Shown: positions 15,270 to 33,165, counted from the first letter of the stretch. The stretch is DNA of 64,000 bases from the human T2T-CHM13v2.0 reference genome, Homo sapiens (GCA_009914755.4 CP086569.2:21888001-21952000); one strand, 5' to 3'. Translations and numbers: made by a program. Notes: generated by a model from the letters alone, not told the origin.

Positions 15270-17680
15270 TTTTACCTAAGGGCCAGATATTTATTCCTAT
15301 TAGCCATTCCCTAGGAGAGCCACTAGTTTAAGAGAATTATTTTTCTTGCTCTTTCTAAATGTTTTTCTGTGCTAAAATGTTACTTTGTGTTAAAATCCTC
15401 CTTTCCTTTAAAGACAACCCATCATTAAGGGTCCTGACAAAAAGCTTATTGTCCACTTTTAGAACTAGACATATGTTCATTTTGATGATTCTCTACAAGG
15501 GCCACTGAGAGTGTTCTTCTCCTTGCTCTTTCTAGACACCTATCTAAAAGTTTTTCTTGTTGAAAACATTTTTTTTTCCAAAACCATAACTGACTGTCAT
15601 CATAAGTTCTGGCACAACACTTTTCATTAGCTTTCAGTGATGGATATTTATTTGTTTTTAAGGTTCTCTAAGAGGGCCACTGATGTGAGAGAATTGATCT
15701 GGTTGTTTTTTCTAAATGCCTGTCTACAAGTGCGTTTTGAACTAAGTGTCATTTTTTTTTTAAGCAAATCACCTGCTATTAAAAATTCTAACACAAAGTT
15801 TGTTGTCAGCTGTCAGGGCTGAATATTTATTTATATTTAAGTTTATGATATTGAAAGTTTCCTAACAGGGAAATAAGTGCAACAAATTTTGTTTCTTCCT
15901 CAAAATGATTGTCTGCAAACTTTTTTTGTGTTTTGAAATTTTGTTTGTCCTAAAAGAAAATTACCCAACTTCAACAGTTCTGACACAAAACCTGTCAAAT
16001 TTCAGAGTCACATATTTGCACATTTTGATGGTTGAAAAAAAACACAACCATGTAAGAGAATGACCCTCCTAGCTGTTTCAAAATAACTGTGTGCCAACTT
16101 TTCATTATGGAGGCATCTTTCATTTTTAGAATAAATATTACCTGTCATCCAGACTTCTGGCAAATAACTTGTTGTCAGTGTTCAGAAGCAAATATTTGTT
16201 TTTATTTATAAATTTCCAGAAGGGCCACTGATAGGAGAGAATCTATCTCCTTGCTTCTTCTAAATGCCTGTCTTCAAACTTTCATTGTTTTGAAATCTTC
16301 CTTTTCATCAAAAATGCCTTCATCAATAATACTGGCATAAACCTTTGGTCAGTTTGAAAACTGAATATTTTTCCTATTGATAAGCCTCTATATAAAGGCC
16401 ACTGGCATTAGACAGTTTTCCTCCTGCTGTTTCTAAATGCCTCTTGCAAACTTTGCTTTGTGGTAAAAATCTTTCTTTCTTATTGAAAGAAAAAAAAACC
16501 AACACCTGTCAAGAGTTCTGGTACAGGCCAGGTGTGGTGGCTCATGCCTGTAATCCCAGTATTCTGGGAGGCTGAGGCAGGCGGACCACTTGAGGTGAGG
16601 AGTTTGAGACCAGCCTGGCCAACTTGAGGTGAGGAGTTTGAGACCAGCCTGGCCAACATGGTGAAACCCATCTCTGCTAAAAATACAAAAATTAACCTGG
16701 TATTGTGATGTGTGCCTGCAGCTACTCGGGAGGCTGAGGCAGAAGCCTCACTTGAATTCAGGAGATGGAGGGTGCAGTGAGCCAAGATCATGCTACTGCA
16801 CTCTGGCTTGGGTGACAGAGTGAGACTCTGTCTAGAAAAAAAGAAAGAAAGAAAAAAAAAAGAAAGCTCTTGAACAAATCTTTTTTCAGCTTTGAGAACT
16901 ATAATTTGTTAATATTCAGTGTCCTCAGGAAGCCAACTAGCATAAGAAAATTCCTCTCCTTGCTCATTCCAACAGCCTGTCTGACAACTTTTCTTTCTGT
17001 TTAATTTTTTTTTCCTAGAAGAAAACTACATATCAACAAGAGTTCTGGCATGAGGGTTGTTACCTTATTTGAGGGAAGGGTATTCATTTATTTTCATATT
17101 TTTTCAGGAAGGCCACTGATAGAATTCCTTTCCCTTGCTTCTTCTAAATGTCTGCAAACTTTGCATATAGAAGTTTTCCTTTCTCTGAAAAAATTACCTG
17201 TTTTAAAGAGTTCTGATCCATAGTTTCTTGCATATTTCAGGGCCAGGTATTTGTTTATTTTTGTGATTTCTATGAGAGCCGCTGAAGTGAGATAACTTTC
17301 TTGCTCCTTCTAAATGGCTATTGGATAAGTTATCTGTTTTAGAACATCTTCCTTTTTCTAAAAGAGAAGGGCCATTCTCATGAGTTCTGGCATGTACTTT
17401 GTGGTAAGCTTTCAGGCTTAGATATTTTTATGGTTCACTAACAGGTTTACTGTTGCTAGAAAAAAATGCCCTTTCGGCTTTTTATAAATGCTTGTCAACA
17501 AACTTTTCTCCAAGGAAATGTTTTCCATTTCCTGAAGAGAAACTACTTATCATCAAGAGTCTTTTCATAAAGCTTGTGTCACCTTTCAGTGCCTGAAGTA
17601 TGTTTATATTGATGGGTTTCCTGAAAAAAAAAAAAAACACTGGGAGGAAAAAATCAACCTTATTACTCCTTTTAAATGTA
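15270..17680. repeat. Unclassified AT-rich tandem array of ~175-bp units, about 12 units, interrupted by an Alu
   Basis: Unit landmarks recur every ~165-185 bp: ...aagagttctggcacaaagcttgttgtcagctttcag.gccagatatttat...tttgatggtt.c.agaagggccactga.gtgagagaat...ttgct.ttctaaatgcctgtctgcaaactt...gttgaaat.ttcctttt...aaagaaaa. It does not match the alpha-satellite consensus as I remember it. Confidence 0.75.
16511..16860 (+). mobile_element. Alu with an internal ~30-bp duplication
   Basis: The element reads ggccaggtgtggtggctcatgcctgtaatcccag... The stretch cttgaggtgaggagtttgagaccagcctggccaac is present twice. Confidence 0.9.
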
Positions 17681-18061
17681 TGTTTGTGAATTTCTTATCA
17701 GGCCTCTGAACCCAAGCCAAGCCATCGCATCCCCTGTGATTTGAAGGTATATGCCCAGGTGGCCTGAAGTAACCGAAGAATCGCAAAAGAAGTGAAAATG
17801 CGCTGCCCCGCCTTAACTGATGACATCCCACCACAAAATAAGTGCAAATGCCAGTCCTTGCCTTAACTGATGACATTCTACCATAAAAGAAGTGAAAATG
17901 TCCAGTCCTTGTCTTAAGTGATGACATTATCTTGTGAAAGTTCTTTTCCTGGCTCGTCCTGGCTCAAAACCCTCCTTCACTGAGCACCTTTTGACCCCCA
18001 TTCCTGCCCACCAGAGAGCAAATCCACTTTGACTGTAATTTTCCTTTATCTACCCAAATCC

Positions 18062-18068
18062 TATAAAA
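18062..18068 (+). promoter_or_regulatory. TATA box in the U3 region of the 5' LTR7 (tataaaa)
   Basis: Read directly. Its position in the LTR is consistent with the known LTR7 promoter. Whether it is active is unknown. Confidence 0.4.
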
Positions 18069-18197
18069 TGGCCCCACCCTTATCTCCCTTCACTGACTTT
18101 CTTTTCCTACTCAGCCTGCCTGCACCCAGGTGGTTAAAAGCTTTATTGCTCACACAAAGCCTGTTTGGTGGTCTCTTCACACAGACATGCATGAAAT

Positions 18198-30789: not shown

Positions 30790-31390
30790 GAGTGGGTCAA
30801 GATGGTAGATGAGAAACAGTGACAATCAGAGGCTCCCATCAAAAAGATCCAAAATAACTATGTGAATCTTTCACTAGTAAACTGAGGTATCTATGTTCTC
30901 TCATAAGAACTGACTAGGCAGATGACATAATCCACAAAGAGAAAGGAAGAGCAGTGCTATGCAGCAGTCCACTTGAGAACCACAGGGAGCAGGGGTGCCC
31001 CAATGCCCCAGCCAAAATAGGTGGTGAGAGAGCATGCTACCCAGCTGGGGGAACTGTGCTTTTTTCATGAAACTCTGCAACCCATGGATCAAAAGGTCCC
31101 ACTTGAGATCCTACAGCAATGACACCTAGCATCCCAATCTCAGGGCTTTGCAGATTCTCAACAACCTACTGTCTAAGCCATTTTACCTTCTTTGGAGTGG
31201 GGCAGCGGTAGGACTCACAACTGCCTGACCGGCTAAGCTCCTTGGGTCAGGGAAATGTGGCATGCATCTCTGTAGCTCCAAGCTGTGTTTTTCTTCTGCT
31301 GGAGCCAGGGAGGCTGGCTGGTTTAGTCACAAAATGTGTTCCCCACAACCCAACAAACTGGCTGTGACACACCAGCCAGAATGCCTCCTC
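30790..31390. other. Unclassified ~600-bp insert within the tandem array
   Basis: It breaks the 175-bp periodicity and has no recognisable coding or repeat signature. It starts gagtgggtcaagatggtagatg, loosely like the sequence that follows the array at 33165. Confidence 0.3.
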
Positions 31391-31439
31391 AGGCTTATTT
31401 CTGGATAACTGTTTACAAACTTGTCATTATGTAACCCTC

Positions 31440-32885
31440 TTCCATTTTTCTTTTTTTTTTCTTTTCTTTTTTTTTATTATACTTTAAGTTTTAGGGTACA
31501 TGTGCACATTGTGCAGGTTAGTTACATATGTATACATGTGCCATGCTGGTGCGCTGCACCCACTAACTCATCATCTAGCATTAGGTATATGTCCCGATGT
31601 TATCCCTCCCCCCTTCCCCCACCCCACAACAGTCCCCAGAGTGTGATATTCCCCTTCCTGTGTCCAAGTGATCTCATTGTTCAATTCCCACCTATGAGTG
31701 AGAATATGCGGTGTTTGGTTTTTTGTTCTTGCGATAGTTTACTGAGAATGATGATTTCCAATTTCATCCATGTCCCTACAAAGGACATGAACTCATCATT
31801 TTTTATGGCTGCATAGTATTCCATGGTGTATATGTGCCACATTTTCTTAATCCATTCTATCATTGTTGGATATTTGGGTTGGTTCCAAGTCTTTGCTATT
31901 GCAAATAATGCCACAATAAACATAGGTGTTCATGTGTCTTTACAGCAGCATGATTTATAGTCCTTTGGGTATATATCCAGTAATGGGATGGCTGGGTCAA
32001 ATGGTATTTACCGTTCTAGATCCCTGAGGAATCACCACACTGACTTCCACAATGGTTGAACTAGTTTACAGTCCCACCAACAGTGTAAAAGTGTTCCTAT
32101 TTCTCCACATCCTCTCCAGCACCTGTTGTTTCCTGACTTTTTAATGATTGCTATTCTAACTGGTGTGAGATGGTATCTCATTGTGGTTTTGATTTGCATT
32201 TCTCTGATGGCCAGTGATGATGAGCATTTTTTCATGTGTTTTTTGGCTGCATAAATGTCTTCTTTTGAGAAGTGTCTGTTCATGTCCTTCACCCACTTTT
32301 TGATGGAGGCATCACACTACCTAACTTCAAACTATACTACAAGGCTACAGTAACCAAAACAGCATGGCACTGGTACCAGATCAGAGATATAGATCAATGG
32401 AACAGAACAGAGCCCTCAGAAATAATGCCACATATCTACAACTATCTGATCTTTGACAAACCTGAGAAAAACAAGCAATGGGGAAAGGATTCCCTATTTA
32501 ATGAATGGTGCTGGGAAAACTGGCTAGCCATATGTAGAAAGCTGAAACTGGATCCCTTCCTTACACCTTATACAAAAATCAATTCAAGATGGATTAAAGA
32601 CCTAAATGTTAGACCTAAAACCATAAAAATCCTAGAAGAAAACCTAGGCATTACCATTCAGGACATAGGCATGGGCAAGGGCTTCATGTCTAAAACACCA
32701 AAAGCAATGGCAACAAAAGACAAAATTGACAAATGGGATCTAATTAAACTAAAGAGCTTCTGCACAGCAAAAGAAACTACCATCAGAGTGAACAGGCAAC
32801 CTACAAAATGGGAGAAAATTTTCGCAACCTACTCATCTGAAAAAGGGCTAATATCCAGAATCTACAATGAACTATAACAAATTTA
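31440..32885 (-). mobile_element. 5'-truncated L1 with an internal inversion (twin-priming structure): 31440-32290 is the L1 3' end in minus orientation, 32290-32885 is an upstream ORF2 segment in plus orientation; ~15-bp target-site duplication
   Basis: The poly(T) at 31440-31480 plus the rev-comp L1 3' UTR (ttaagttttagggtacatgtgcacattgtgcaggttag) mark the minus-strand 3' end. ORFs 31681..31923(-) and 32032..32292(-) are the ORF2 C-terminus. ORF 32272..32877(+) is an ORF2 segment (...[22 protein letters not shown]...). The flanking direct repeat cctcttccatttttc lies at 31426-31440 and 32886-32900. Confidence 0.8.
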
Positions 32886-33165
32886 CAAGAAAAAAACAAA
32901 CAACCTCTTCCATTTTTCAAAAGTAAACTAACCCATCATAAACACTTCTGGCATAGACCTTGCTGTCAGCTTTTAGAGTTGGATATTTGTTTTTATTGAA
33001 TGGTTCCTAGAAGAAAAACTGGTTTGAGAGAATTTTCCCCCTTGCTCTTTCTAAATGTCTGCCTGCAAACTATGTTTGTTAAAATTTCCCCTTTTATTAA
33101 AATAATCCCCATCAGCAATAGTTCTTCCATAAAGCTTTCTGTCAGCTGTTAAAACTGAATAGTTA
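32885..33165. repeat. Last ~1.6 units of the 175-bp tandem array
   Basis: About 95% identical to 30495-30790. Confidence 0.7.

Follow-up and report, generated by a model that had tools for sequence, protein, structure and literature searches.

The human T2T-CHM13v2.0 reference genome contains, at CP086569.2:21888001-21952000, a palindrome whose spacer carries an array of short AT-rich repeats. This stretch of 64,000 nucleotides is referred to herein as the window, and all positions are counted from its first letter. Comparison of the window with itself revealed an inverted repeat in which positions 1-8955 match positions 50183-41253 at 99.71% identity (0.29% divergence), leaving a spacer at 8956-41252. 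Within this spacer, at 15277-33165, lie AT-rich units of ~177 bp that follow one another head-to-tail on the + strand only and are interrupted by Alu, HERV-H and L1 elements. An initial annotation had described an unclassified ~175-bp-unit array, older than its insertions, that filled the spacer. Our data bear out the palindromic setting, and the array does occupy much of the spacer, beside an ERVK fragment that is truncated at its 5′ end and spans gag p24 to dUTPase. We consider it likely that the array represents an old satellite, probably specific to this locus, in fossil form.

The array was confirmed using a profile hidden Markov model (HMM) that was seeded with five hand-picked units and then iterated by nhmmer over both strands of the window. 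This approach recovered 29 units, together with partial ones and a duplicated tail, mostly with E-values of 1e-18 to 1e-39. Matches were located only at 15277-17698, 27014-30783, 31378-31447 and 32945-33161, all on the + strand, and the remainder of the window gave no match better than E ~1 on either strand. Once the HERV-H provirus, three Alus and the extra target-site copies had been cut out to give a cleaned array, the main array measured 5205 bp and comprised 29.2 contiguous units, spaced mostly 170-185 bp apart (median ~177 bp, against a majority consensus unit of 181 nt: GAGTTCTGGCACAAAGCTTGTTGTCAGCTTTCAGGGCCAGATATTTGTTTATTTTGATGGTTCTCTAGAAGGGCCACTGATGTAAGAGAATTCTTCTTCTTGCTTTTTCTAAATGCCTGTCTGCAAACTTTTCTTTATGTTAACATCTTTCTTTCCTTGAAAAAAAACTACCCATCATCAA). 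The duplicated tail adds 0.33 kb, bringing the total to ~31 units. Measured in this way, the array is smaller than had been proposed: the figures of at least 6 kb and ~35 units were too large, as was the 7.5 kb assigned to it before the spacer was invaded.

The periodicity itself stands, as it is supported by the HMM units, by the spacing of shared 7-mers, which peaks at 170-180, ~350, ~540, ~720 and ~880 bp, and by Tandem Repeats Finder (TRF) at permissive settings. The TRF check, which had been named beforehand as one that could refute the array, had a divided outcome. At standard settings, and also at a minimum score of 30, the program reported no ~175-bp row, while at permissive settings (2 3 5 75 20) it returned periods of 175-180 from the cleaned array, with up to 16.8 copies and 52-59% matches. 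Since the units are only ~59% identical to each other, we attribute the miss at standard settings to a limit of sensitivity. In having one orientation, regular spacing and this many contiguous units, the array has the generic features of a tandem repeat or satellite.

The first block of the array (15277-17695, + strand) holds units 1-12a, found as 12 nhmmer hits (E 1e-19 to 1e-38). It begins mid-unit, at model position 31, and is broken by an AluS at 16526-16863. To the left of the array are 271 bp of unique AT-rich DNA, and no transposon terminus was seen at this end. The second block (27023-30789, + strand; nhmmer hits) holds units 12b-29 and the first ~41 bp of unit 30, is broken by two AluS elements (27766-28085 and 28357-28648), and ends mid-unit at 30789. 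One of its units contains an (AC)23 microsatellite (29429-29475, found by TRF), whose growth accounts for the single over-long unit spacing of 216 bp. The initial annotation had recognised three blocks and placed the main ones correctly; it overlooked a small fourth block at 31378-31450, and it began its third block at 32885 instead of ~32905, which lies beyond an L1 target-site duplication. Among the landmark strings it gave, gccagatatttat, tttgatggtt and gttgaaat are present exactly, and the others are consensus-like, not literal. With up to 3 mismatches, TTCTAAATGCCTGTCTGCAAAC occurs 7 times and the 33-mer AGTTCTGGCACAAAGCTTGTTGTCAGCTTTCAG occurs twice, as compared with 0 occurrences of either in 100 shuffles.

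The units are strongly decayed. Pairwise identity averages 59% (range 47-72%), and identity to the majority consensus is 72%, which corresponds to a raw divergence of ~28% and a Kimura two-parameter (K2P) distance of 0.36, with a transition/transversion ratio of 1.3. No higher-order repeat was found, identity being flat at ~0.59 over unit lags 1-14. Units 4-6 and units 27-29 are slightly closer to each other (69-71%) with no periodic pattern, a likeness that hints at an old internal duplication. The array has a GC content of 33.4% and is T-rich on the + strand (37% T, 29% A). It contains 16 CpG dinucleotides where 143 would be expected (0.11 of expectation), and across units ~60% of consensus G/C positions are retained, as compared with ~79% of A/T positions. 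Stops break all six frames in both the consensus and the actual array sequence, leaving no coding potential; Rfam matched the embedded Alus and none of the array units; and the CENP-B box, TTCGNNNNANNCGGG, is absent from the array with one mismatch allowed. Taken together, these features fit DNA that has long been methylated and is decaying neutrally.

The mobile elements inside the array provide its relative chronology. The AluS in unit 8 (16526-16863, + strand; Rfam Metazoa_SRP hit) is flanked by agagttctggtaca and agctcttgaaca, two versions of the beginning of the unit that look like a degraded target-site duplication. The pair of AluS elements in the second block gave Rfam SRP and Alu-derived microRNA hits and have the target-site duplications AAGAAACCACC and CTCTGTT. 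Against Alu consensus sequences, all three elements are AluS-like with 9-12% non-CpG divergence, and the one in unit 8 is nearest to AluSx (8.8%). Unit 12 is split by a HERV-H provirus (17696-27022, + strand) with LTR7-like long terminal repeats (LTRs) at 17698-18199 and 26524-27025, which are 88.3% identical (11.7% diverged), and TTTCT is duplicated either side of it. When the provirus was excised, the HMM matched the split unit in one piece, from model position 1 to 168. These insertions thus entered an array that was already in place, as the initial annotation had held. The layers of divergence are graded, from ~28% for the units against their consensus through 11.7% for the HERV-H LTRs, 9-12% for the AluS elements and ~7% for the duplicated tail to 0.29% for the palindrome arms. 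As the target-site duplications are made of array sequence, a unit continues across HERV-H, and the divergences are graded in this manner, the array is the oldest layer of the locus: it predates the AluS and HERV-H insertions and, by a much wider margin, the palindrome.

Two observations concern the inserted elements themselves. The AluS in unit 8 contains a perfect 34-bp tandem duplication (16588-16657; 2.1 copies, 100% match by TRF) that is much younger than the element. The HERV-H interior has an open reading frame (ORF) of 426 residues on the + strand (22031-23311), which is long given LTRs that are ~12% diverged.

At its right end the array meets a 588-bp fragment (30790-31377, + strand) that aligns to the 5′ untranslated region (UTR) of the full-length L1 in the window and is colinear with it from base 4 to base 4 (Z = 5.2; 0/200 shuffles). 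The fragment begins at the L1 5′ terminus and marks where the surviving array originally ended on the right. Array sequence then recurs as a duplicated tail, A′, which copies the last part of the main array, A. The start of A′ (31378-31450, + strand) is a copy of 30487-30560 matched by nhmmer at model positions 87-154, and the rest (32905-33165, + strand) comprises one full unit and ~43 bp, aligns to 30560-30830 and was found by nhmmer with E = 2.6e-39. A and A′ are ~93% identical (~7% diverged) over ~300 bp. Between the two parts of A′ is a 5′-inverted L1 fragment (31451-32904) of the twin-priming type, the two halves of which match the L1 3′ region at 92% in opposite orientations; it has poly-T at 31451-31478 and a ~15-bp target-site duplication, CCTCTTCCATTTTT(C), on both sides. 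Past A′, ~40 bp resembling the L1 5′ start are followed by ERVK gag, so that the second tail copy is joined directly, at mid-gag, to an ERVK without a 5′ LTR. Viewed across 30487-33205, the array end (~300 bp) and the start of the L1 5′ UTR occur twice, with 588 bp of L1 5′ UTR-like sequence between them. Since the array tail is repeated and the ERVK starts in gag p24 with no 5′ LTR, this arrangement implies that ~0.9 kb of the right end was locally duplicated in tandem and that a deletion came afterwards.

The betaretrovirus-like ERVK fragment that takes up the rightmost part of the spacer (33209-41252, + strand) was delimited by Pfam, with Gag_p24 at 33215-33436 (7e-15) and dUTPase at 40989-41264 (6e-14), the fragment ending in mid-dUTPase. 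It is interrupted at ~33900-40700 by HERV9/LTR12-like sequence, within which TRF found 24-41-bp repeats at 34008-34097 and 39967-40219 that we take to be LTR12-type. On the other side of the array, self-comparison and the ORF list identified a full-length L1PA-type element with no intact ORFs (9153-15204, + strand), which ends 74 bp left of the array and has a 14-bp target-site duplication, GAAAAGTTAAAACA, on both sides. A second full-length L1PA-type element (50997-56999) has the same orientation, is 93% identical to the first over 6 kb and likewise has no intact ORFs. It sits past the stretch of arm 2 that has a counterpart inside the window, whereas the first sits in the spacer.

Both palindrome arms were defined by self-comparison. 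Arm 1 (1-8955) holds ERVK pol in reverse, on the - strand, with RNase H at 7245-7583 on that strand by Pfam, and may continue left of the window start. Arm 2 (41253-50183, + strand) has protease-like and RNase H-like frames at 42179-42960, and its ERVK seemingly lacks reverse transcriptase. At 8955/8956 and 41252/41253 the arms have inner boundaries that are sharp to the nucleotide, and the latter boundary is the exact point at which the ERVK dUTPase homology stops (profile position 83/129). From 41253 onwards a ~0.9-kb stretch that starts TGTAATACC looks non-retroviral, and ERVK frames resume from 42179; the arm boundary may therefore coincide with the edge of an element that was inserted in the provirus. 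Segments of ~670 bp in the arms (3064-3728 and 46469-47133) are 67% identical to 58652-59325, which lies outside the arms and is inverted relative to arm 1. These may be LTRs of one family, the arm segments being the ERVK 3′ LTR and the outer one a solo LTR. A 113-residue ORF of the left arm has an identical copy on a contaminant contig from a human gut metagenome.

We compared the array with known satellites and with known repeats of other kinds. Beta satellite has a 68-bp unit, gamma satellite a GC-rich unit of ~220 bp and HSATI a 42-bp unit, HSATII and HSATIII are pentameric, and SST1 has a GC-rich unit of ~1.4 kb. Beta, gamma, HSATI and HSATII/III were rejected, as these unit sizes do not fit 177 bp. 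The array had also been suggested to be a macrosatellite; with a unit of ~177 bp rather than kilobases and no longer or higher-order period, it differs from the DXZ4, D4Z4 and SST1/MER22/NBL2 type, which has units of ~1 kb or more (the last three names denote one repeat in the literature). SATR1 (~44% GC) and SATR2 (~377-bp units, ~52% GC; bioRxiv 10.1101/2025.08.04.668424) were excluded by the 177-bp unit and 33.4% GC of the array, the distinction being drawn from published descriptions of the families. An origin from MIR was rejected at z <0 on both strands against a MIR consensus. An RNA-gene origin (tRNA, 5S or 7SL) was likewise rejected, since the Rfam matches fell on the embedded Alus only, and so was an origin from a mobile element of the window, as the HMM had no match in the L1, Alu, HERV-H, HERV9 or ERVK sequence.

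Searches for the array in other collections gave no convincing match. The words TTCTGGCA, CTGCAAAC, AGATATTT and TTCTAAATG and their reverse complements are absent from the 62 new T2T-CHM13 consensus sequences (Table S2, bioRxiv 10.1101/2021.07.12.451456) by an exact test of 8-9-mer words on the text, not by alignment. One core word had a single occurrence in the set-aside T2T-CHM13 families, which was judged unrelated by eye, and the reverse complements of core words had only isolated unrelated matches, for example in WaluSat. The array is thus apparently not among the 13 arrays or the 62 new entries reported for T2T-CHM13. Three core words and their reverse complements were not found in the text of the T2T-Y supplement, and in the ape sex-chromosome supplements, which apparently hold no satellite consensus, core words matched only in a gene-sequence file. 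Pattern scans followed by rescanning with the HMM yielded chance matches only, in prokaryotic genomes (24, almost all Acinetobacter), metagenomes (11) and viruses (35), collections that hold little human DNA. A protein-word search with 13 aligned array reading frames found no match among 5.8 billion proteins, and exact look-up showed the array ORFs not to be on record.

Against this background, an alternative that we judge unlikely, though by no means negligible, is that the array belongs, as a diverged copy, to a satellite or repeat family listed in Repbase or Dfam, in which case RepeatMasker would supply a name and the array would not be new. Human satellites in these libraries include HSAT4-6, GSATII, GSATX, ACRO1, CER, D20S16, LSAU, MSR1, REP522, SN5 and TAR1. 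The human genome has been very thoroughly mined for repeats, 30 copies at 72% identity to their consensus would be within reach of RepeatMasker if such a consensus exists, and absence from the T2T new-repeat table would also be expected if a library entry already matches the array. This alternative is opposed by the lack of significant similarity to the alpha consensus, by the poor fit of the classical families of known unit size to 177 bp and 33% GC, and by a full-text search of ~8 million papers with four consensus words, which found nothing. Indirectly, the absence of core words from the T2T new-repeat table and from the T2T-Y supplement text, the exclusion of SST1/MER22 and SATR1/2 by unit length and GC, and the blindness of TRF at standard settings favour the array being unannotated, and we regard its unclassified status as plausible but unproven. 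The array resembles the new interstitial arrays of T2T-CHM13, small chromosome-arm tandem arrays that were missed by standard libraries and came to light by manual curation (Hoyt et al., bioRxiv 10.1101/2021.07.12.451456), but is far more decayed than repeat-finder tools usually detect.

Two further alternatives, each of which we consider extremely unlikely, would link the array to alpha satellite or to a mobile element. In the former the array would be a distant relative or precursor of alpha satellite, or a relic of an ancestral centromere or heterochromatin block. Decayed, monomeric alpha is indeed alike in consisting of head-to-tail, AT-rich units of roughly nucleosome length, in lacking higher-order repeats and in being invaded by L1 and Alu, and the array period of 175-180 bp is near, yet unequal, to ~171 bp; length alone is not diagnostic. 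Against an alpha consensus, the forward strand of our consensus scored z = 0.3, and its reverse complement gave a 130-nt local alignment with z of 2.7-2.9, a score reached by 5/300 and 16/1000 shuffles. This signal depends on the scoring scheme, with best-strand p ranging from 0.016 to 0.145 (the latter with 5/-4/-10/-2), and the 29-unit HMM ranked the alpha consensus below shuffled alpha. Furthermore, the array has neither a CENP-B box nor a higher-order repeat, its units are far more diverged (59%) than is typical even of monomeric alpha, and it extends for only ~5 kb amid ordinary euchromatic interspersed elements. Alpha satellite was rejected, in agreement with the initial annotation, as homology was not demonstrable. 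In the latter alternative, the units would be 5′ monomers of the abutting old L1, as in mouse, or an expanded internal repeat of an ancient transposon. The array end does meet the L1 5′ terminus exactly at 30789/30790 in the same orientation, and mouse-type L1 monomers are also tandem ~200-bp units directly upstream of L1 5′ sequence and co-oriented with it. However, homology to L1 starts at the canonical 5′ end of the element, which places the units outside it, and at least 29 units at 59% identity are too numerous and too diverged, given that one L1 copy has few monomers and that these are nearly identical. Such units are absent from the three further L1 copies or fragments in the window, and the left array end, as described above, shows unique DNA and no transposon terminus. 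The simplest reading of the junction is that an L1 inserted into or beside a pre-existing array.

The favoured reading of an old local satellite suggests the following history, in which the array, its decay, the insertions and their order relative to it, and the palindrome are observed, and the way in which the unit was amplified, neutrality, restriction to one locus and absolute age are inferred. A ~177-bp AT-rich unit would have multiplied in head-to-tail fashion, through unequal exchange or slippage during replication, until the array reached at least 5.2 kb. Homogenisation would then have ended, and neutral, methylation-driven, AT-biased decay would have brought the units to ~59% pairwise identity. 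An older L1 would have inserted where the array now ends on the right, after which the three AluS elements, the HERV-H provirus and the L1 fragment would have entered the array body, and a local duplication of ~0.9 kb would have copied the last units and the L1 5′ end. Far later, inverted duplication of the neighbouring ERVK-containing segment would have produced the palindrome, with the array in its spacer. The array would lie there only because this much later event was placed 271 bp to its left. Since the palindrome, whose arms differ by 0.29%, arose far more recently than the array, their association is probably incidental. Macaque SATR arrays are comparable in that a tandem array lies between two inverted near-identical duplications (bioRxiv 10.1101/2025.08.04.668424), but those arrays are large, homogeneous, 44-81% in GC content and recurrent at many loci, whereas the array described here is a decayed 5-kb relic.

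Several observations weigh against the history set out above. If the units began identical, a K2P distance of 0.36 would give the array an age comparable to that of MIR and L2, and yet 5.2 kb of array contains no insertion older than primate-specific elements. This discrepancy would mean either that the units were never homogeneous or that the age is overestimated. Conservation is also uneven along the unit: 27 columns are at least 90% conserved where 1.2 would be expected under uniform decay, 24 are conserved at 50% or less where 2 would be expected, and the variability among columns is ~3.6 times that predicted by binomial decay. The best-kept words are GTTCTGGCA, TTCTAAATG and GCCACTG. In the cleaned array, GTTCTGGCA, GCCACTG and TTCTAAATG..CTGCAAAC, at consensus positions 1-12, 76-82 and 106-126, are retained in most units while adjoining columns are near random, and these words may be under constraint. 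Such unevenness can, however, be explained without selection, by tree-like amplification, base-specific mutation and alignment noise, and we do not argue for constraint. A bolder proposal, which we rate as very improbable, is that the array is all that survives of a primate or eutherian family of satellites that preceded alpha, maybe distantly related to alpha or an ancestral heterochromatin or centromere mark and maybe absent from all repeat libraries, in which the kept words could be former or current protein-binding sites.

The array has no detected coding, RNA-gene or centromere-protein-binding feature and is most likely without present function; on the reading that we favour, namely a decayed local satellite, its only present role would be to offer primate retroelements a place to insert. 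Decayed tandem repeats are ordinary objects, and this one represents at most a small gap in annotation. It would bear on an open biological question only if it were shown to be linked to alpha satellite or to function in binding. Its value, which is slight, lies in repeat annotation, in providing a dating layer for the palindrome spacer and in serving as a test case for tools that detect degenerate repeats. If the array is truly absent from Dfam, its 5 kb would escape TRF through decay and family-based libraries through being so local, and would constitute a small, concrete case of "dark" repeat content in the human genome that would currently be read as unique sequence.

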